Below, one piece after another: positions 1 through 24,363 of a stretch of DNA of 64,000 bases. The position numbers and the translations under genes are program-made. This DNA is from an uncultured Pseudomonadota bacterium (GTDB lineage: Bacteria; Pseudomonadota; Alphaproteobacteria; JACZXZ01): assembly GCA_963749075.1 (NCBI GenBank), contig CAVVLJ010000020.1, positions 512,001-576,000 on the forward strand, given 5' to 3'. Below the pieces are notes generated by a model that was not told the origin of the DNA, searched no databases, and saw only the letters and a list, made by a program, of their open reading frames with translations. How positions within the stretch are numbered: position 1 is the first letter of the stretch; every line of letters begins with the position of its first letter.

Positions 1-897
1 TCGATCGCCGAGCTCAGCGAGCCCGCGGGCGAGCCGGCTTCGGGCAACGCCGAGCCGCCGCCGGCCATGGCGGTCAACTTCATGGGGCTGACCGGCCCGA
101 GCGGCGTGCTGCCGCAGCACTATACCGACATCCTCATCCAGGTGACGCGGAGCAAGAGCTACGGCTTGCGCGATTTCTTCGACGTCTTCAACCACCGCCT
201 GGTGTCGCTCTTCTACCGCGCCTGGGAGAAGTACCGCCTGCCCGCGGCCTACGAGCATTTCGGCAACGGCGGCAAGGATCCGATCAGCCAGAGCCTCTAT
301 GCCCTCGCCGGCTTCGGAACAGGCCACCTCTGCGGCCGGCTCGAGATCGACGACGAGGCGCTGTTGCACTATTCCGGCTACCTCTCCCACTGGCCGCGCT
401 CGGCGGCGGCACTCGAATCACTCCTCAGCGACTATGCCGGCCGGCCCGTGCAGGTCGAGCAGTTCCACGGCCATTGGCTGTGGCTCACTTTGGACCAGCG
501 CTCGCGGATGCCGAGCAAGGACGAGCCGCAGGGCCGCTTCTGCGAGCTCGGCGTCAACAGCGTGGTGGGCGAGCGCGTATGGGACGTGCAGGGCAGCTTC
601 CGCCTCGCCATCGGGCCGCTCAGCTACGCCCAGTTCGTGCGCTTCATGCCGACCGGCGACGAGCTCCTGCGCCTGGCCCAGCTCACCCGCCTCTACGTCG
701 GCGCGGACCTCTATTTCGACGTGCAGCTCACCCTCGCCAAGGAGGAGATCCCGGCCTGCGAGATGGCCCAAGAGGGCGGCCAAGAGGGCGCTTACGTGCC
801 GCGCCTCGGCTGGAACACCTGGCTCAAGTCGCGTCCCGCCCGCCGCGACAGCTCGGACGCGGTGTTCTCGCTGCAGGGCTGGGTGGTCGCGCGGTGA
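1..897 (+). CDS. tssG: Type VI secretion baseplate subunit TssG (5' end probably outside window)
   Basis: Motifs FMGLTGPSGVLPQHYT, LRDFFDVFNHRLVSLFYRAWEKYR, RVWDVQGSFRLAIGPLSYAQF and RLGWNTWL are typical of TssG/VasB; the frame is open upstream of ATG 67 to the window edge. Confidence 0.9.
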   Translation, partial: SIAELSEPAGEPASGNAEPPPAMAVNFMGLTGPSGVLPQHYTDILIQVTRSKSYGLRDFFDVFNHRLVSLFYRAWEKYRLPAAYEHFGNGGKDPISQSLYALAGFGTGHLCGRLEIDDEALLHYSGYLSHWPRSAAALESLLSDYAGRPVQVEQFHGHWLWLTLDQRSRMPSKDEPQGRFCELGVNSVVGERVWDVQGSFRLAIGPLSYAQFVRFMPTGDELLRLAQLTRLYVGADLYFDVQLTLAKEEIPACEMAQEGGQEGAYVPRLGWNTWLKSRPARRDSSDAVFSLQGWVVAR

Positions 898-11495: not shown

Positions 11496-11511
11496 ATAAC
11501 CAAATATTAAC
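11496..11511. promoter_or_regulatory. Near-consensus CtrA-type binding site (ATAA-N7-TTAAC)
   Basis: ataa-ccaaata-ttaac, one mismatch from TTAA-N7-TTAAC, in an AT-rich patch upstream of the c-di-GMP gene. Confidence 0.4.
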
Positions 11512-11633
11512 AAAGGTCAGTCAATAATGAGATGATCAGTCTGGGCGGACGCGTGAAAATAGAGCAAAACAATCGACAAGCGAGCCGCGGCGCGGCAGCC
11601 AGCCGAGCCGGCTAAAGCGTGGAACGTAAACCA

Positions 11634-14273
11634 ATGTTGAGCGATAGGGTGGCGCGCATTCGCGGAACTCCGACGAGCCGGCCTAAGGAGGCGCCCTGCG
11701 GCGGCAATGCGCGCGAGGCGGCCGGCAAGACGCGGATCGTCATCATCGACGACCGCGTCACCAACCGGCGCATCATGAGCGAATTGGCCGCGGTGCTCGA
11801 GGAGAACATCACGGTCAAGGCGTTCGACGATCCGCTCGCGGCGCTCGCCTGGGTCGAGGACAACACGCCCGACCTCGTGATCACCGATTACAAGATGCCG
11901 AACATCGACGGCGCCGAGTTCGTGCGCCGCTTCCGCCGTCTGCCGCTCTGCTTCGACGTCCCCGCGGTGGTGGTGACGGTCTACGAGGACCGCGAGTTCC
12001 GCTATCAGGCGCTGGAGGCCGGCGCCACCGACTTTCTCCTCTCGCCCGTCGACCACCACGAGTTCTGGGCGCGCTCGCGCAATCTCCTTGCACTGCGGCG
12101 CCAGCAGCAGATCATCAAGCACCGCGCCTATTCGCTCGAGCGCAAGCTGGCGCAGAGCCATCGCCTCCACGAGGAGACGGTCAAGGAAATCCAGGGCCGG
12201 CTGCGCGCGGTGATCGATGCCGTGCCGGCGATGATCTACGCGACGGATGCCGACCTTCGCCTGGTCTTCCTCAACAGCCACGCCGCGACGTTCTCGGGCG
12301 TCGGGCGCGAGGCCGCGATCGGCGAGAGCGCCGAGGCCGTGTTCGGCGAGAGCTTCGGCCGCATGAGCCAGGCGGCCGATCTGACGCTCTTCACCACCGG
12401 TGAGGCGCCGCCGCCCTTCGAGGAGCAGCTCGTCGACGCCGCCCGGCGCCGGCGCGAGATGCTCACCACCAAGAGCGCCTTGCGCGACGCGGGCGGCCGC
12501 ATCACCCACGCCGTGACCGTCGCCATCGACATCACCGAGCGCAAGGATGCCGAGGCGGCGCGGCGCGAGGGCGAGGAGATGCTGCGCGGCATCGCCGAGC
12601 ATATGCCCGGCACGATCTTCCGCTGCGTGCTGCGGCCGGACGGCTCGATCGCCTACCCCTATATCGGCGCCACGGCCAAGACGATCTACGGCATCGACCC
12701 CGAGGAGGCCGTGCGCGACGGCTCCGCGATGCTCCGCGTCATGCATCCCGAGGACCGCGAGGGCTACATCGCCGCGATGCACCGCTCGGTGGAGAAGCTC
12801 TCCCCCATGGAGTTCGAGGGCCGCTTCATGACGCCGGCGGGCGAGCTCCGCTGGCTCAAGACCATGTCGCGGCCGCGCCGGCTCGAGAGCCGCGACATCA
12901 TCTGGGACGGCGTCATCCTCGACATCACCAACCTCAAGAAGGCCGAGGCGCACCGCGACTACCTCGCCTACCACGACCAGTTGACCGGCCTGCCGAACCA
13001 GAGCCTGTTTCTCGACCGCATGTCGCAGGCCATCACCCAGGCCGAGCGCTCGGGGCGCATCGCCGCCGTGCTCTGCCTCGAGATCGAGACCCTGCGCGAC
13101 ATCCGCGACAGCTGGGGCCTCGTCGCCGCCGACGACATCATCCGCGAGACGGGGAAGCGCCTCAGGGCCACGCTGCGTCCGGGCGATACCATCGCCCATG
13201 TCGGCGGCGGGCAGTTCTATGCGCTGCTCTGCGGCATCAGGAAGATGGCCAACGTAGCCGTGCCGCTGCACAAGCTCGTCGAGGCCTTCGAGCGGCCCTT
13301 CGCACTGCACGGCGACCACATCCACATCAAGGCCGTCATGGGCATCAGCGCCTTCCCGGTCGACGCGCGCGAGCCGGAAGCGCTGATGCGCAATGCCAAT
13401 ACCGCCCTCGACCGCGCCAAGTTCCTGCCCACGCGGCGCTACGAGTTCTACAGCGCGCAGATGACCGAGGGCGCGCTCAGGCGCATGAATCTCGAGGCGG
13501 GCCTGCGCCGCGCGCTCGACGAGGGTCAGATCGAGGTCTTCTATCAGCCGCAGGTCGGCTCGAGCGACTTCGCCATCGTCGGCCTCGAGGCGCTGGCGCG
13601 CTGGCGCCGACCCGGAAACCTGCTCGTCTCGCCCTACGATTTCATCCCCATCGCCGAGCAGACCGGCCTCATCGTGCAGCTCGGCGAGCACGTCCTGCGC
13701 ACGGCCTGCGAGCAGGCGAAGGCCTGGGAGCGCGACGGCCTCAACATTCCCTCCATGTCGGTCAACGTCTCCGGCCGCCAGCTCATGGAGGAGAACTTCG
13801 GCGATCTCGTGCTCTCCGTCCTGGGCAAGACCGGCTTCTCGCCCGTCAGCCTCAAGCTGGAGCTGACCGAGAGCACGATCATCCAGAACGCGGAGGTCGT
13901 CTCCCGCGTGATGCAGCAGCTCAGGAGCGAGGGCGTCACCTTTGCCGTCGACGACTTCGGCATCGAGCACTCGGCGCTGAGCCACCTGTCGCGTCTCAAG
14001 GTCGAGACGCTCAAGGTCGACCTCTCCTTCGTCTCGCAGATGACCGCCGACCCGGCGCACGCGGCCCTGGTGCAGGCCATCGTCTCGATGACGCACGCCA
14101 TGAAGAAGAAGGCCGTCGCCGAAGGGGTGGAGACCCAGGAGCAGCTCGATTACCTGCGCGCCTACCAGTGCGATGCGCTGCAGGGCTACCTGTTCTCGCG
14201 GCCGCTCAGCGCGGACAAGGTCGAGGGCCTGCTGCGCATCGGCACGATCCCGCCGGGCAAGCGGGCGAGTTGA
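11634..14273 (+). CDS. RpfG-like REC - PAS - PAS - degenerate GGDEF - EAL c-di-GMP phosphodiesterase
   Basis: REC (IVIIDD, DLVITDYKMP, GATDFLLSP), two PAS/PAC segments (DITERK, MHPEDRE, DITNLK), AYHDQLTGLPN with GGGQF in place of GGDEF, EAL motifs YQPQ, LEALARW, ELTES, DDFG, AEGVET, QGYLF. Start uncertain (11619-11650). Confidence 0.9.
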   Translation: MLSDRVARIRGTPTSRPKEAPCGGNAREAAGKTRIVIIDDRVTNRRIMSELAAVLEENITVKAFDDPLAALAWVEDNTPDLVITDYKMPNIDGAEFVRRFRRLPLCFDVPAVVVTVYEDREFRYQALEAGATDFLLSPVDHHEFWARSRNLLALRRQQQIIKHRAYSLERKLAQSHRLHEETVKEIQGRLRAVIDAVPAMIYATDADLRLVFLNSHAATFSGVGREAAIGESAEAVFGESFGRMSQAADLTLFTTGEAPPPFEEQLVDAARRRREMLTTKSALRDAGGRITHAVTVAIDITERKDAEAARREGEEMLRGIAEHMPGTIFRCVLRPDGSIAYPYIGATAKTIYGIDPEEAVRDGSAMLRVMHPEDREGYIAAMHRSVEKLSPMEFEGRFMTPAGELRWLKTMSRPRRLESRDIIWDGVILDITNLKKAEAHRDYLAYHDQLTGLPNQSLFLDRMSQAITQAERSGRIAAVLCLEIETLRDIRDSWGLVAADDIIRETGKRLRATLRPGDTIAHVGGGQFYALLCGIRKMANVAVPLHKLVEAFERPFALHGDHIHIKAVMGISAFPVDAREPEALMRNANTALDRAKFLPTRRYEFYSAQMTEGALRRMNLEAGLRRALDEGQIEVFYQPQVGSSDFAIVGLEALARWRRPGNLLVSPYDFIPIAEQTGLIVQLGEHVLRTACEQAKAWERDGLNIPSMSVNVSGRQLMEENFGDLVLSVLGKTGFSPVSLKLELTESTIIQNAEVVSRVMQQLRSEGVTFAVDDFGIEHSALSHLSRLKVETLKVDLSFVSQMTADPAHAALVQAIVSMTHAMKKKAVAEGVETQEQLDYLRAYQCDALQGYLFSRPLSADKVEGLLRIGTIPPGKRAS

Positions 14274-14418
14274 GGCCGGCGCCGCTTGCGCGCCGCAGGG
14301 AGATGGCCAAAGATCGGCGAAAATCCCGGTTGAGTCCTCGCCCCGGTCGTGCGGCCGGGAGCAGTCGCAATAAGCGGAAGGCGGGGCCGCCGCGGCGCGT
14401 TTTGCAGCAGTACTGGCG

Positions 14419-16977
<2,559 letters not shown>

Positions 16978-17059
16978 TCCCGCGCGCCGGCTGCTCCCCC
17001 CGGCGCCGCCGGTCGGCCGCCGGGCGGCGCCCTCGGGGGTGCCGCTCGGCGGGCGTCGC

Positions 17060-18097
17060 TCAGTTGTTGCGCACGAGCGCCGAGACGCGCCGGTCCTGGG
17101 CGGCGGCAAGGCGCTCCATGCGGCGGAGGTCGCTCTCCTCCAAGCTCAAGGCGGCCTCGACCCAGACGTGGGTCACGTCGAGGAGCTCCTCGTAGGGCAC
17201 CGGGTTGACGCGGCGGCGCACGCGGTAGACGGCACGGTGGGCCGTGTGGCGCCGCCCGAACTGGTCGATGTATTCGTAGACCGCGTCGTCGCCCTTGCCG
17301 TCGTCGGCCAGCACGTCGACGAGCCCGAGCTCGTAGAGCTCGTCGGCGCCATAGATGCGGCCGGAGAGGATCATGCGCTCGGCCTGTGCAGCACCTATGC
17401 GCCGCTCGATCAGGCTGTAGGCCCCCATGCCGGGGAAGAGATTGAAGAGCATCTCGGGGAAGCCGAACTTGGCGCTGCGCTCGGCGATCACGAGGTTGCT
17501 CGACAATGCCGCCTCGAAGCCGCCGCCGAGCGCGTCGCCGCGCACGAGCGAGACCGTGATGAGCGGCAGCTCCAGGTTGATCGTGTTGAGATAGACGACG
17601 TCCACGCACGCGGTCGCGTATTCCAAGAGGCGCTCGCGGTCGCGTTTGCGGATGAGCTCCACGAAGAGCTGCAGATCGCCGCCCAGATTGAAGATGCCCG
17701 GAACCTTGGAGGACCACACCATGTAGCGGAAGGGGGCGCCGGCGCCGCCGGGCTGCTCGCGAAAGAGCTGCTGCACCGAGCGCTGCAGCGTGCGGCTCTC
17801 GCGCGCGAGCTCGAGCGTCACGCTCGGCCGCGCCGTCGGGCTCATGAAGCACCAGAGGATCTTGTCTTGATCGTCGAACGTCAGCTCGATCTGGGAAAGA
17901 TTGCCGAGACGCGCCAGCCACTCGTCGCGCGTCTGGCCGGAGATCGCGTCGGGAAGGTTGATCACGTCCGCATGGTCGCCGAGAGCAGCACGGCGATCGA
18001 AGGACGGGGTCGTCGGTCGGGACGTGCCGAAGCGCCCGCGCAAGGCGCCCGGTTCTGTCGTCTTGGCCGTGTCGAGGCTTTGCCCATAGACTCGCAT
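17060..18097 (-). CDS. rpfF: RpfF DSF synthase (crotonase family)
   Basis: SKVPGIFNLGGDLQLF, LVRGDALGGGFEAALS, FGFPEMLFNLFPGMGAYS (both catalytic Glu), WVEAALSL..SDLRRMERL; strong RBS ggaggagg before ATG 18097. Confidence 0.9.
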   Translation of the reverse strand: MRVYGQSLDTAKTTEPGALRGRFGTSRPTTPSFDRRAALGDHADVINLPDAISGQTRDEWLARLGNLSQIELTFDDQDKILWCFMSPTARPSVTLELARESRTLQRSVQQLFREQPGGAGAPFRYMVWSSKVPGIFNLGGDLQLFVELIRKRDRERLLEYATACVDVVYLNTINLELPLITVSLVRGDALGGGFEAALSSNLVIAERSAKFGFPEMLFNLFPGMGAYSLIERRIGAAQAERMILSGRIYGADELYELGLVDVLADDGKGDDAVYEYIDQFGRRHTAHRAVYRVRRRVNPVPYEELLDVTHVWVEAALSLEESDLRRMERLAAAQDRRVSALVRNN

Positions 18098-18763: not shown

Positions 18764-21749
18764 CTATTTCCCGAACAACCCCTTGATGGCGTTGCCGATA
18801 TTCTTCACCGCGGGCGCCTGGCTGCCGCCCGCGGCGCCGCCCGGGATCGGCAGGCCCAGGCCCTTGGCCGCGTTGCCGAGGTTCGCGGGCAGGTTCTTCA
18901 GCCGCGCGGGGTCCTTCATGACCTGCGCGAGGACGGACTTCCAGTCGGCCTGGTAGCTCGGATTGCTCCATGGGCCGGTGATCTTGACCGGAATCGGGAT
19001 GCCGCTGAGCGAGTCACTGCCGCCTTGGCCTTGGGTTGAGGCTACGAGCGTGGCCTCGACGGTGTAGTCGAGCGTGCGCGGCGGGAAGGGAACGGTCCCC
19101 TTGCCGGTGAGGCGCACGAGCGGCGCCAGCATCTTGAGATCGCCGTTGCTCAGCACGCCGGCCTTCATCGCGAAAGTGCCGCTGAGCTCCGAGAAATCCG
19201 TCTTCTGCGTCTCGGAGCTGCCGAAGCCGAGGCTGCCGGCCTGGCGCAGCATGGCCGGGAGATCGATGCCGTGAATGGCGCCGTTGGTGATCTTGAACTG
19301 GCCCTTGCCTTGAAGCGTGCCGACGAGCTCCTTCTCGCTCCGCCCGCTGCCTGCCACGCTCATCTCGTAATCCGTGGTGCCGGAGAGCCGGCTGCTGCCG
19401 GCGAAGGTCTTGAGGAGCGGCTCTGCCTCTACGCCGGCGACGGTCGCCTGATAGGCGAGCTTCGGCACCGCGCCCGTGGCATCGAGCGACACCTTGGCGC
19501 CGATCGTGCCCTTGGCAAGGGCGAGCTTGCCGATCGTTACGGTAAGCACCTTGTTGGCGAGCGTGGTCTTGATCTCGCCCTCGGTGATGTCGAGATCGCG
19601 GTAGTGCGTCGAGGCGAGCTCGATGGTGAGATCGCCGTTGCCGTCCGCCAGCGAGGCGAGGTCGTAGGGCTCGGCGCTCCAGCCCGCGGCCGGTGCTGCC
19701 GCAGGTGCTGCGCCCTTGGCGCCGGGCGCGGCCGCCTGGCCCGTGCTGGACGGCAGGTAGGCGTTGAGATCCGCCTGCTGGACGCTGAGCTTGCCGGTAA
19801 AGGTGGGAACCTTCTGCGAGCCGTCGAGCTGCATCGCGGCCGTGACCTTGATCGCCTTGCCGGTGATCGAGGCGTCCTTGAGCGTGAGCTTGGCGCCGTC
19901 GCTCGCGAGCGTCGCATGGATCTTGAGCGGCCCGGGGTCCGGCTGCTTGGGGTCGAGCGGGTTGTCGAGCCAGGCCGCGAGCTTGGCGACGGAGGCTACG
20001 TCGACGTCGAAGGTGCCGTCGATGCCCGGCACCGGCTGCTTGAGCTGCACCTCGCCCGCGTAGTTGAGCGAGGCGAGCGCCGAGGCGAGGGCGATCTTGG
20101 CCGGGAAGCGCTCGCCCGCGAACATCTTCTGCAGCGGGCCGAGCGTGGCGTCCGTCGTCACCGCCTGGCCGTTGTAGTTGAGGCTGGCCTTGAGCGTCGG
20201 CTGCTTATCGAGGCCCGGAAGATCGACCTCGAGCTTGAGGCCGGAGATGGCGTGGGCAGCCGCCTCCTTGACGTTGACGCCGCCGAGGTCGAGCGCCAGC
20301 TTGCCGCTCAGGCCCGCGAAGAGGGCGCGCGGGGTGGTCCCCCGGGCCGCGGCGTCGAGGGTTGCCGAGACGGCGCCGCTCGCGGGCGTGCCTGCGAGGG
20401 CCGCCAGCTTGTCGACCGTCACGTGGTCGATCTTCATGCTGGCGGCGAGCGCCAGAGCATTCTGCGTGGCGTCGAGCTTCACGCCGCCCTTGACGCTGCC
20501 GCCGTAAAGCTGCAGATCGGCGAGCTCCGCATCGAGCACGCCGCCCTTCGCCGTGGCGCTCAAGGCCGTGTTGCCGAGCACGTAGCCCATGGCCTTGACG
20601 CCGGTCAGCGTCACCTTCACGTCGGCATCGATCTTGCGCAGTGCCTCGAGGTCGAACGGCTTGTCGGAGAGCGCTGCCGCCAGGCTTTTCCCCGGCGGTG
20701 CTGCGATCCCCGGCGCTGCCGCCGCGGCCTTGGGCGGCGGCGGCAGGTAGCGGTCGAGGTCGAGCATCGAGCTGTCGACGGCAAGCGAGAGCTTGGTCAC
20801 CGGGCCGCTCTCGTCCAGGCTCCCGCTGGCGCTCGCCTTGAGCGCCGTGCCTTGGAGCGTGGCCTCCTTGAGCGCCGACGTGCTGCCGTTCGAGGCGAAG
20901 ACGGCGTGGATCGTGACGGGCCCCGGATCGGCTTGCGCCTTGTCGAGCGGGCGGTGGAGCCAAGCCATGAGCCGGCCGACCGAAGGCACGCTCAAATCGA
21001 AGGTGCCGTCGAGGCCGGGCACCGGGCGCTGCTGCGCGCCGCCGTCGAATTTCGCCGTGAGCTCTTTCGTCGTCACCGCCAGCTTCACCTTGGCCTGCTG
21101 GCCTTGCGAGAGGCGGGCGAGGGAGTCAAGCGAGGCATCGAGCGTGAGCGGCTCGTCGTTGAGCGTCATGCTGCCTTTGAGCGTCATCGGGCTGGAGACC
21201 GCGGCCATCGCCGCGTCGAGCGAGACGTTCTTGGCCTCGATGGTCTGGCCGGTGGTGGCGTCGCTGTAGGCGACATGCCCGCCCGCGATCTTCACGTCGC
21301 CGAGACTGAGCCCTCCCAACCCTCCGCCGGAGGGCGCCGCTCCCGCTGCCGCCGGAGCCGCCCCGCTCGCGCCCGCGAAGCGCCAATTGGGCGTGCCGGC
21401 CTTGTTCACCTCAAGCGTGAGCGACGCATTCGTGACGGTGAGCTGGTCGATGACGAGGCGGCCGCCGATGAGCGGCCAAAGCTCAGCCTCGAGCGAGAGA
21501 TCGCCGATCGACAGCATCTCGGGCGCCGTCATGCCGGGTGCGTTGGCGAGGTGGACGCCTGCCGCACTCACGCGCAGCTCGGGCAAGCAGCGACAGGCTC
21601 AGCGCGCCGTCGATGCGCAGCTCGCGGCCGGTCGCCTGCCGCACGCTCGAAATGATCCACGGCTTGAAGTCGATGACGCTGGGGGCTGCGAAGACGGCTG
21701 CGACCAGAAGGACGATGACGCCGACAATGACGAGCGCCAGTTTTTTCAT
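18764..21749 (-). pseudogene. AsmA family protein with internally duplicated domain, interrupted by a +1 frameshift near 21586 (pseudogene or sequencing error)
   Basis: ORF 21483..21749 gives the AsmA N-terminus (MKKLALVIVG...QATGRELRIDGALSLSL) and ORF 18764..21586 continues LPELRVSAAGVHLAN...TDFSELSGTF..IPIPVKITGPWSNP; junction ctg-c-ttg-ccc has one extra base. Confidence 0.8.
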
Positions 21750-21942
21750 GGTGTCCCGCCTTTCGTGCCGTTCTTGTCGTGCGCGCCGGGGCGCCCCGAG
21801 AGAGGCTCGCCCGGCCCTTTACTATATACGCTCGCCCCCTCGGCTCGCCAGGGGCCGTGGCCGGCGCGAACTCCGTCAAGCAGGCTGCGGCCGCGCCGGC
21901 GGATCGCGTAGGATGCGGCTCACGGGCGAGGGCGGAGGGATC

Positions 21943-24363
21943 GTGAGGAGGCTGCGGAATCTCGGACCGGCGTTCTGTCTCGTGGCGCTCCTTGCGGGAA
22001 GCATGCGCGCCGCCGCCGGCGAGGCGCCGGCGGTCTACGCCGTCAAAGGGCTGGTCCAGCCGGTCGAGGTGCTCTACGACCCGTGGGGCGTGCCGCATAT
22101 TTTCGCAAAGACGCTGGCGGACGCTTTTTTCGCGCAAGGCTTCGTGGCCGCGCGCGACCGGCTGTGGCAGATCGACTGGCACCGGCTGCGCGGCCTGGGC
22201 CGGCTCGCCGAGCGTCTCGGCCCTGCTCTGGTTCCCTATGACCGAGCCGCGCGCCTCTTCCTCTACCGCGGCGAGGAGGAGGCCGAATGGCAGGCCTACG
22301 GCCCGCGCATCAGGGAGATGGCAACCGCCTTCACCGCCGGCATCAACGCCTATGTGGCGCTCGTGCGCCAAGAGCCGGCTCTCCTGCCCGCGGAGTTCCG
22401 CTGGCTCGGCTATTTCCCGGAGCCGTGGCAGCCCGCCGACCTCTTCCGCCTGCGCTCCGACGGCGCCTCGGGCAACGCCGCGGCCGAGGTGCGGCGCGCG
22501 GAACTCGCCTGCCGCGGCGCGCTCGCCGCCGACGCCATCGCCCATCCCTTGTCGCCGCCGTGGCGCACCGCGGTCCCCGACGGCCTCGACCCCTGCTCGG
22601 TCACGCTCGGCGACCTCGAGCCTCGGCTGCTGCTGGGGGCGAGGCTGCCCCTCGCGGAAGCCGCCGGCAAAGCCGGTTGGCTCCCTTCCCGCGCCGCCGA
22701 GCGGCTTGCCCAAGGCGACGCCGGCCCGTCCGACCCCGCTGCGGCCGAGGGCAGCAGTGCCTGGGCCATCTCGGGCCGCCTCACGCGGAGCGGGCGCCCC
22801 ATCCTCGCCAACGACCCGCATCTCCGCCTCGGGGTGCCCTCGCCGCGCTACATCAGCCATCTGGTGGCACCGGGCCTCGATGCGATCGGCGCCGGATGGC
22901 CGGGGAGCCCGGGCATCCAGAACGGCCACAACGACCGCATCGCCTTCGGCCGTACCAACTTCGCCATCGATCAGGAGGACGTCTACGTCCTCGAGACCAA
23001 GCCGGGCGATCCCGAGCAATACCTCTACCAGGGGCGCTGGCAGCGCATGACGGTCGTCAACGAGGAGATCGCGGTCAAGGGCGGAGCCCCTGTGGCCGTC
23101 AAGCTGAAATACAGCCTCTTGGGGCCGATCGTGGCCGAGCATCCCCGGGCGAGGCGCGCCGTGGCGCTCAAGGCCACCTGGCTCGAGCCCGGTGCGGCGG
23201 TCCTCCTCCTCAACCTGCCGTACGACTTCGCGCGGGACTGGCAGAGCTTCAACGAGGCGCTCGGCTCGGCCAGCGTGGGCACCAACTATCTTTACGCGGA
23301 CGTGGACGGCAACATCGGCTGGCGGCCCGCCGGGCGCGTGCCGCTGCGCCCCCATCACGACGGCCTCTTGCCGGTTCCCGGCGACGGGCGCTACGACTGG
23401 GCAGGCCTCATGCCGCTCGCGGATTTGCCCAGCGCCTTCAATCCGCCCGAGGGCTGGCTTGCCAGCGCCAACGAGATGAACCTGCCGCCGGATTACCCCC
23501 ATGCTACGCGCAAGATCGGCTTCGAGTGGGGCGCGCCCGACCGCCACGCGCGCATCGTCGAGCTCTTGAAGGCGGGCTCAGCCTTCTCGCTCGCGGACAG
23601 CGTGGCCGTCCAGCACGACGTGCTCTCCGGGCGCGCGGTGCGGCTGGCGGCACTTCTTGGCGGACTGCACCCGGACGATGCCAAGCTGGTCCGCGCCATC
23701 GCCATGCTCGGTGCCTGGGACAAGCGGATGGCCGCCGACAGCGCGGCCGCGGCGCTCTTCGAGGTCTGGTGGGCGAAGCTGTGGCAGGGCTTGCGCGACA
23801 GCTTGATCCCCGAGCGTTTGCGCGGGCTGGTGCCCTTCGTCAATCCGAGCGTCGGCCTCGCAGCACTCGAGCACCCGGACGAGCGCTTCGGGCCCGAGCC
23901 TGCGGCGGCGCGCGACGCGCTCCTCTTGGCCGCACTCGAGAAGGCCGTCCAGGAGCTCGAGCAACGGCTCGGACCCGAGTGGGCGGCCTGGCGCTGGGGG
24001 CGCCTCCATACGGCGGCACTCCGGCATCCGCTGGCGGCCCTCCTCAAGGAGGATGAGCGCGCTGCTACGGCCATAGCAGGCGGCGAGACGGGAGGCGACA
24101 ACTCGACCGTGCTGGCGCGCTGGCTCGCGTCGCCCACGGCAAATGTGTCGGGCGGCGCCTCCTTCAGCATGGTGCTCGACGTGGGGAACTGGGACGCCTC
24201 GTTGGCACTCAACGCGCCGGGCCAGTCGGGCGATCCCGCGAGCGCCCATTATCGCGATCTCTATCCGCGCTGGCTCAAGGGCGAGATGTTCCCGCTCCTC
24301 TTCAGCCGGGAACGCATCGAGGCGGTCGCCGGGACGCGGCTCCTGCTGCGCCCGGCCAAGTGA
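21943..24363 (+). CDS. Penicillin acylase family (Ntn-hydrolase) protein
   Basis: DPWGVPHIFA, AQGFVAARDRLWQ, GSSAWAISG at the processing site, PILANDPHL, NYLYADVDGNIG, PGQSGDP..HYRD. Start 21913 or 21943. Confidence 0.9.
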   Translation: MRRLRNLGPAFCLVALLAGSMRAAAGEAPAVYAVKGLVQPVEVLYDPWGVPHIFAKTLADAFFAQGFVAARDRLWQIDWHRLRGLGRLAERLGPALVPYDRAARLFLYRGEEEAEWQAYGPRIREMATAFTAGINAYVALVRQEPALLPAEFRWLGYFPEPWQPADLFRLRSDGASGNAAAEVRRAELACRGALAADAIAHPLSPPWRTAVPDGLDPCSVTLGDLEPRLLLGARLPLAEAAGKAGWLPSRAAERLAQGDAGPSDPAAAEGSSAWAISGRLTRSGRPILANDPHLRLGVPSPRYISHLVAPGLDAIGAGWPGSPGIQNGHNDRIAFGRTNFAIDQEDVYVLETKPGDPEQYLYQGRWQRMTVVNEEIAVKGGAPVAVKLKYSLLGPIVAEHPRARRAVALKATWLEPGAAVLLLNLPYDFARDWQSFNEALGSASVGTNYLYADVDGNIGWRPAGRVPLRPHHDGLLPVPGDGRYDWAGLMPLADLPSAFNPPEGWLASANEMNLPPDYPHATRKIGFEWGAPDRHARIVELLKAGSAFSLADSVAVQHDVLSGRAVRLAALLGGLHPDDAKLVRAIAMLGAWDKRMAADSAAAALFEVWWAKLWQGLRDSLIPERLRGLVPFVNPSVGLAALEHPDERFGPEPAAARDALLLAALEKAVQELEQRLGPEWAAWRWGRLHTAALRHPLAALLKEDERAATAIAGGETGGDNSTVLARWLASPTANVSGGASFSMVLDVGNWDASLALNAPGQSGDPASAHYRDLYPRWLKGEMFPLLFSRERIEAVAGTRLLLRPAK

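Follow-up and report, generated by a model that had tools for sequence, protein, structure and literature searches.

An RpfF/RpfC-type locus of an uncultured alphaproteobacterium whose response regulator appears to carry an exchanged EAL output

The 64,000-nucleotide stretch analyzed here (positions 512,001 to 576,000 of contig CAVVLJ010000020.1, from an uncultured alphaproteobacterium; hereafter the window) contains a response regulator gene, an rpfC-type hybrid kinase gene and a convergent rpfF-type gene, a combination known from signaling by diffusible signal factor (DSF). Judged from its sequence, the locus is a real RpfF/RpfC module, and we consider it probable that it is a DSF-type module of the RpfF/RpfC/RpfG kind in which the output of the response regulator has been replaced; that it works like RpfF/RpfC/RpfG is what we infer from the likeness. 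What makes the module interesting is not so much the EAL output itself as an output that can be swapped and a suggested tie to the CtrA/DivK network. The three genes are located as follows.

11634-14273, + strand: regulator gene, ATG start, 879 amino acids, in the position of RpfG (hereafter the slot)
14419-16977, + strand: rpfC-type hybrid kinase gene, 852 amino acids
18097-17060, − strand: rpfF-type crotonase gene, ATG start, 345 amino acids, convergent with rpfC

An earlier sequence-only reading of this DNA had claimed the order regulator, rpfC and oppositely oriented rpfF in an alphaproteobacterium; all three open reading frames were found in these places, and the host assignment was supported. 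A regulator in tandem with rpfC and a convergent rpfF is the layout by which the Xanthomonas RpfF/RpfC/RpfG system is defined, and because the identical gene order was found in 7 of 7 loci of one comparison set and also in distant loci, chance is excluded. The source genome (G000; 5.5 Mb, 96% complete) is one of 11 in a small order, and a search of G000 gave a single match to the membrane domain of RpfC.

The crotonase passes the PRK08788 model with 371 bits (cut-off, 177), contains both GGGFEAAL and FPEMLF, and in the alignment its G140, G192, E195 and E215 are spaced like G86, G138, E141 and E161 of Xanthomonas campestris pv. campestris (Xcc) RpfF, as numbered in passages of PMC9040811. All four PDB matches at E ≤ 1e-15 were RpfF or RpfF-like. 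In a tree of 64 rows, the window protein fell in a 56-row RpfF clade (100/100) that includes Burkholderia cenocepacia and xanthomonad-type RpfFs, and eight ordinary crotonases of G000 fell outside it, with a long-branch warning at the root. The phylogeny that the sequence-only reading had suggested thus groups the protein with reference RpfFs and not with ordinary enoyl-CoA hydratases, and motifs, residue spacing and clade membership agree with its claim of an RpfF that keeps both catalytic glutamates. On these sequence features, the crotonase is a true RpfF-type protein and a candidate DSF synthase. In the same tree, the RpfFs of L102 and L103, two loci on plasmids of Sphingomonas parapaucimobilis and Methylobacterium radiotolerans where rpfF is convergent with a GGDEF-EAL gene in an RpfR-like arrangement, form a separate clade of their own.

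In RpfC, Pfam assigned HisKA, HATPase_c, REC and HPt domains, the phospho-sites H208, D633 and H787 are kept, and the N-terminus is hydrophobic with about five hydropathy peaks, which indicate about five membrane helices by hydropathy only. The sensor motif is located as follows.

14485..14508, + strand: RpfC sensor motif R23-A-D25-S26-E27-H-E-Q30, from a 48-row alignment

In this alignment, R23, D25, S26, E27 and Q30 match R15, D17, S18, E19 and Q22 of Xcc RpfC at all five positions, and replacement of each of these Xcc residues abolishes DSF binding according to passages of PMC5391125. The RADSEH-like sensor, transmembrane region, REC and HPt that had been read from the letters are therefore all present (RADSEHEQ; Pfam; hydropathy). 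The N-terminal domain can be aligned with those of RpfCs from REC-HD-GYP/rpfC/rpfF loci, and no solved structure was matched by the membrane domain. The ATPase domain and REC are separated by about 160 residues to which Pfam assigned nothing, compared with 32-47 in xanthomonad-type loci. Within this part, residues of about 430-580 (window 15700-16160) form a receiver-sized segment, absent from xanthomonad-type RpfC, with a weak alignment to hybrid kinases of solved structure, at their first receiver-like region. Elsewhere, in some loci with an EAL protein in the slot (L006, L007, L096 and L100), the sensor motif is partly or wholly eroded, which may mean a different ligand. The predicted complex of RpfF with the RpfC REC domain scored 0.79 against 0.00 for the best control; among reference pairs, 51 of 78 solved ones and 2 of 108 mismatched ones came up to the mark. 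The runs agreed in at least 97% of the contacts, and the predicted local distance difference test value (pLDDT) of the partners was at least 86. Because a like complex (3M6M) is already solved, the model speaks for likeness only and not for binding; as modeled, the RpfC REC domain probably also binds RpfF.

The regulator had been described as REC-PAS-PAS-GGDEF-EAL with a cyclic di-GMP (c-di-GMP) output different from that of Xanthomonas. Pfam bore out the domains (REC, PAS_4, PAS_3, GGDEF and EAL), but the GGDEF domain is not intact, since it reads HVGGGQF, that is, GGGQF, and departs from the GG(D/E)EF motif of diguanylate cyclases; a bifunctional or cyclase output was rejected on this motif. 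The catalytic motif set of EAL domains consists of EAL, N, E, DDFG, K, E and Q, and EAL, VNVS, ELTE, DDFG, LKVD, EGVE and QGY are all present in the regulator. Because GGDEF is degenerate and EAL intact, phosphodiesterase is the likely activity, and the regulator is probably a c-di-GMP phosphodiesterase with the same sign of output as RpfG. An EAL protein does stand in the RpfG position, as had been claimed.

Comparison of the two halves of the regulator points to a composite origin, and three parts can be delimited.

11736..12545, + strand: REC-PAS1 input module (the conserved part) with a receiver of RpfG lineage; identity to the kinase-type L078 regulator, 76%
12546..12580, + strand: approximate splice junction, end of PAS1 and its linker helix; point of attachment of kinase, PAS-GGDEF-EAL and PAS-GGEEF outputs in different relatives
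12581..14270, + strand: PAS2-GGDEF-EAL output module with degenerate GGDEF, 50-57% identical to five own-genome paralogues

When residues are numbered from the GTG at 11619, residues 38-320 are 76% identical to the REC-PAS-histidine kinase regulator of L078, a locus of the same family, and for residues 316-879 a paralogue at another place in G000 shows 57% identity. The window GGDEF-EAL clusters (100/100) with five paralogues of G000 whose GGDEF motifs are all degenerate, apart from the other slot EAL proteins and eight RpfR-type rows; an origin of the output from an RpfR hybrid was rejected on this grouping. These five paralogues, on contigs C4, C16 and C17 of G000, share a variant EAL loop and make up the PAS-GGDEF-EAL family regarded as donor of the swapped output. 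In the tree of REC-PAS1, the window clade is nested among kinase-type proteins. All 38 slot receivers (23 kinase, 11 EAL and 4 HD-GYP) formed one clade (100/99) against 15 other receivers of G000, although this tree has an outgroup from one genome, long branches and a bootstrap that had not settled, which count against the reading of a common lineage. Over the receiver region, the REC-HD-GYP proteins are 57-63% identical to the window regulator. Three further proteins, P0246-P0248, are 83-85% identical to the window over REC-PAS1 and nested inside the window clade, have an intact GGEEF and no EAL, and carry a cyclase domain 72-73% identical to another paralogue of G000, so that an output of opposite sign is predicted within the window clade; their gene context was not found in the five genomes searched. 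All output types join REC-PAS1 at the end of PAS1. By these comparisons, the regulator is a chimera of REC-PAS1 from a REC-PAS-kinase ancestor and a PAS-GGDEF-EAL part with degenerate GGDEF that its own lineage supplied from a family of paralogues, the kinase-type rpf loci are the immediate ancestor of the window locus, and at least four outputs, HD-GYP, histidine kinase, GGDEF-EAL and GGDEF only, are found on one receiver module as judged by homology.

The following course can be proposed for the module. RpfF would convert acyl-acyl carrier protein (acyl-ACP) to a cis-2-unsaturated fatty acid, and this signal would be bound by the N-terminal R-x-D-S-E-H-x-Q sensor of RpfC, as the conserved residues suggest. 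A phosphorelay would then run from H208 through D633 and H787 of RpfC to D85 of the regulator, whose EAL domain would be switched on phosphorylation to c-di-GMP degradation, while the degenerate GGDEF would have no catalytic role.

Several observations weigh against this proposal, and those on the receiver concern its last steps. The receiver keeps D85 and T115 but has Ser137 in place of the conserved Lys. Of the 34 alphaproteobacterial slot receivers, 33 have Ser at this position and 1 has Thr, whereas all four HD-GYP receivers have the Lys; canonical phospho-activation is therefore not assured. Loss of this Lys weakens activation. RpfC and the signal could thus be real while the receiver is not switched by stable phosphorylation and serves as a phosphate sink, or is controlled by binding to the HPt domain of RpfC or to RpfF; for Xylella, passages of PMC4504480 report a proposal that RpfF changes partners among REC domains. 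We regard this as unlikely, because the acidic pair, phospho-Asp and Thr are retained in all slot receivers compared and RpfC keeps H208, D633 and H787, and because the uniform Ser suggests a selected active-site variant rather than decay. The observations on RpfF bear on the signal itself. The protein scored 218 bits with the narrow NCBIfam RpfF equivalog NF053515, under the cut-off of 550, is only 36-38% identical to xanthomonad-type and Burkholderia rows, and begins with about 60 extra residues ahead of the region alignable to RpfFs of solved structure; in addition, a 2026 survey kept only homologues of at least 65% identity because of their likeness to ordinary hydratases, according to passages of PMC13711827. 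Together with the lack of an adjacent rpfB-type turnover gene, this would suit a crotonase that makes no diffusible signal or a different fatty acid, with RpfC sensing the acyl-ACP or membrane fatty acids of its own cell in a metabolic rather than quorum role. Membership of the RpfF clade, the complete catalytic residues, the intact RpfC sensor motif and the persistent linkage of the three genes make this improbable.

The sequence-only reading had itself favored a third DSF architecture, which in a strong form would be an old and separate RpfC/RpfR hybrid whose bifunctional GGDEF-EAL was inherited as a unit. REC-PAS-GGDEF-EAL proteins by rpfC and rpfF in distant lineages, most of them with an intact GGDEF motif, and the occurrence of EAL in 35 of the best 120 of 1144 REC-PAS homologues are in line with it. 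However, a 100/100 branch sets the window GGDEF-EAL apart from the other slot EALs and the RpfRs, with which it shares only 32-39% identity, the input half nests among kinase-type proteins, and the GGDEF is degenerate, which leaves this origin very improbable. The claim of a third architecture accordingly gives way to a receiver of RpfG lineage joined to a GGDEF-EAL that groups with own-genome paralogues, one of at least four outputs and a minority form in the class sample.

The occurrence of these forms was determined in a class sample of 401 alphaproteobacterial genomes, of which 32, including the window genome, had a PRK08788 match; the neighborhoods of all 32 loci were inspected, with Pfam on 25 chosen proteins. 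The counts here and below all include kin and are hence not independent. The slot output was kinase-type in 22 of the 32 (two of these cut by contig ends), GGDEF-EAL in 4, three of them from the window genus, and HD-GYP in none; of the remainder, three had no rpfC and three were at contig ends. The kinase-type count includes L049, where the gene is divergent and the ATPase domain uncalled; in both L049 and L080, the kinase-type regulator is divergent from rpfC and has no HATPase_c call, and these genomes have DivK and no CtrA. In a sample of the phylum, PRK08788 was matched in 74 of 401 genomes; the eight new alphaproteobacterial matches comprised three EAL-slot loci, two RpfR-type loci and three without a recognized neighbor, and of the 63 matches outside the class, 12 were inspected (4 REC-HD-GYP, 3 RpfR-type, 4 with rpfC and no adjacent regulator and 1 other). 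Among the best 120 of 1144 REC-PAS homologues, the listed Pfam domains indicated 82 kinase, 35 GGDEF-EAL and 3 GGDEF-only proteins. The view that EAL is the common alphaproteobacterial form is unsupported in the class sample (4 of 32), yet it accounts for three of the eight new phylum-sample matches and for the 35 homologues just mentioned. A synteny search as suggested by the sequence-only reading found REC-PAS-GGDEF-EAL with rpfC and rpfF in L006, L007, L074, L094, L096, L100, L125 and L126.

The outputs of the kinase-type relatives share a single H-box in all 24 regulators examined, which appears to be PleC/DivJ-like. The label draws on NCBIfam ranks, where a DivJ or PdhS model was the top match for four of eight regulators, all far under the cut-off, and on the names given by JGI, which calls three such proteins PleC. 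According to passages of PMC7003649, DivK and PleD are the predicted targets of PdhS kinases. With a DivK query confirmed against PDB, DivK of at least 62% identity was found in all 25 kinase-type genomes, and CtrA in 21 of the 25, the other four lacking it. In the window genus (G000 and G002-G006; assemblies of 3.5-5.5 Mb), DivK was found in none of six genomes, with best matches of 43-44% in longer frames; PleD, ChpT and CtrA were likewise found in none of the six, and flagellin in none of the three tested. The other five genomes of the family had PleD in 5/5, ChpT in 4/5, CtrA in 4/5 and flagellin in 2/2, and the PleC/DivJ-like kinase family had one or two weak matches in the window genus versus 4-15 elsewhere. 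The genus thus appears, from these searches, to have lost the CtrA/DivK network, and loss of CtrA and DivK in some alphaproteobacteria is noted in passages of PMC2877005. In G318, a complete genome with an EAL slot, DivK and the PleC/DivJ-like kinase family were also not found. The exchange of kinase for EAL therefore likely followed or accompanied loss of DivK, PleD and CtrA in the genus, as one event with a parallel in G318; as to cause, the kinase output may have been left without a target, and the swap would then have tied the signal to c-di-GMP again.

This association has to be set against several facts. The window genus represents a single evolutionary event, and its assemblies are 79-100% complete (the locus of G004 is cut by a contig end). 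G465, G543 and G754 have an EAL slot and yet keep DivK and CtrA; DivK of 81-84% is present in three of four other EAL-slot genomes when two Sphingomonadales, which have a divergent DivK-like protein of 53-55%, are counted apart. The stricter statement that an EAL output requires loss of DivK was rejected, since EAL-slot genomes with DivK exist. The L005 genome also has an EAL-type locus together with DivK; as a counter-example to the genus correlation, it is weakened by a second, kinase-type locus in the same genome and by 92-96% DNA identity of L005 to the loci of the genus, and the L005 locus may reflect either misbinning or transfer.

A link to CtrA is also suggested by the regions upstream of the regulator, where one element stands out in the window.

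11496..11511, + strand: ATAA-N7-TTAAC element, one mismatch from the CtrA box, overlapping a −35-like hexamer TTAACA at 11507

The CtrA box is given as TTAA-N7-TTAAC in passages of PMC7200025 and as TTAA-N7-TTAA in passages of PMC9437464. The same ATAA-N7-TTAAC element is found in L001, L004 and L005, with two mismatches in L003, and perfect boxes lie at about the same distance in the family loci L078 and L079. Within 450 bases upstream of the regulator receiver, a box with at most one mismatch was present in 18 of 34 alphaproteobacterial loci, five of them perfect (14 of 29 without the five genus-type rows), versus 0-5 loci for nine other spacer lengths and 1.65 for block shuffles; upstream of rpfF, a box was present in 12 of 32 loci. 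Genome-wide, perfect matches numbered 23 in G007 and 20 in G009, both genomes of the family, with one at the rpf operon in each, although the reversed-pattern control was also high in G007 (19); five genomes of the window genus had 0-1 each. Judged by its sequence context, the window element is probably promoter DNA; it may also be what is left of a CtrA site, CtrA itself not having been found in G000. In L054, and also in L055, L056 and L061, all kinase-type, several perfect boxes, some of them in tandem, lie upstream of rpfF.

Taken jointly, these patterns allow a wider and more tentative reading, which we hold possible rather than probable: a DSF-type signal would be wired into the DivK-CtrA loop in many Alphaproteobacteria, and in the lineage of the window its adaptor would have been re-plugged to a phosphodiesterase and then to a cyclase after loss of the CtrA network. 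In such a loop, CtrA would control the rpf promoters, and phosphate from RpfC would pass to a PleC/DivJ-like second kinase acting on DivK and PleD. The REC-PAS input would serve as an adaptor to which different outputs are plugged at one constant junction, and with the move of a nested sub-lineage to a diguanylate cyclase, an unchanged signal would evoke a response of opposite sign. RpfF-family genes, present in 32 of the 401 sampled alphaproteobacterial genomes and mostly accompanied by RpfC and a non-RpfG output, would, if functional, add many bacteria of soil and water to those with quorum sensing by fatty acids. They suggest an unreported link of DSF-type signaling to the CtrA/DivK network, and the natural series from kinase through phosphodiesterase to cyclase on one receiver offers a test of rewiring by domain swap after target loss.

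Among characterized systems, RpfF/RpfC/RpfG of Xanthomonas campestris (rpfGHC convergent with rpfF) is the nearest in gene order and orientation, and shares with the window the RpfF catalytic residues, the RpfC sensor residues, the membrane domain and the HisKA-HATPase-REC-HPt series; the RpfG receiver is of the same lineage as that of the window regulator, and net degradation of c-di-GMP is probable in both. The window differs in its PAS-PAS-GGDEF-EAL output (GGDEF degenerate) instead of HD-GYP, a receiver without the conserved Lys, the longer ATPase-to-REC part of RpfC, the absence of adjacent rpfH or rpfB and the presence of a CtrA-box-like promoter element. Because its regulator is not REC-HD-GYP, the window module is not a strict member of RpfF/RpfC/RpfG. 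Compared with RpfF/RpfR of Burkholderia and Cronobacter, it interposes a membrane kinase and a receiver domain, and with a degenerate GGDEF and a GGDEF-EAL outside the RpfR-type group, it is not an RpfR. Alphaproteobacterial rpfF/rpfC/REC-PAS-histidine kinase loci have the same RpfF, RpfC and REC-PAS1 input but differ in their PleC/DivJ-like H-box kinase output and in genomes with DivK and mostly CtrA. Quorum sensing is also coupled to the CtrA pathway through N-acyl homoserine lactones (AHL) in roseobacters, according to PMC4046655 (Dinoroseobacter shibae) and PMC3692519 (Ruegeria KLH11); the signal chemistry and receptors are different, and the rpf link proposed here is drawn from CtrA-box motifs and the PleC/DivJ-like kinase of relatives.

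In the literature searched, with supplements and most subscription journals outside the search, no account was found of an rpfF-rpfC pair whose regulator has an EAL or kinase output, in agreement with the presumption that the triad had not been characterized. RpfCG and RpfR are named as the core DSF pathways in passages of PMC4504480, and the 2026 survey, in the portions available of PMC13711827, distinguishes three operon types and, with a threshold of at least 65% identity, reports RpfF from no class but Gammaproteobacteria. RpfC-RpfG is listed for alpha-proteobacteria by KEGG orthology, without gene context, in passages of PMC8895600, and the host range is therefore not fully novel. Thirteen RpfC-G fragments are drawn in a figure of PMC12781772, as far as its excerpt goes, and the excerpts of PMC4618731 and PMC2877005 contain nothing on DSF.

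Pfam on the neighbors of the locus identified a DAO oxidoreductase, a 179-amino acid open reading frame without a match and AsmA, and no rpfB, rpfH or HD-GYP gene was adjacent, as the sequence-only reading had stated. A listing of RNA holders had no entry for the locus, which carries no information about its expression. The penicillin amidase family includes AHL acylases, and a hydrolase of this family is encoded at window 21538-24363 (+ strand), at a distance of about 3.5 kb from rpfF. L074 has a homologue of 34% identity close to its rpf locus, and no full-length one was found in the other fetched loci. A type VI secretion TssG gene occupies window 67-897 (+ strand) at the left edge, and the remainder of the window holds mostly metabolic and transport genes unrelated to the rpf locus.

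Among other loci, L089, L090, L092 and L093 of family f225, which gave most of the phylum-sample matches, have rpfF and rpfC without an adjacent response regulator, and at L069:10127-12487, a second RpfC-like kinase without HPt lies on the other side of rpfF. The same regulator family is represented in cultured species by the proteins P0354 of Methylopila turkensis and P0357 of Hansschlegelia zhihuaiae.

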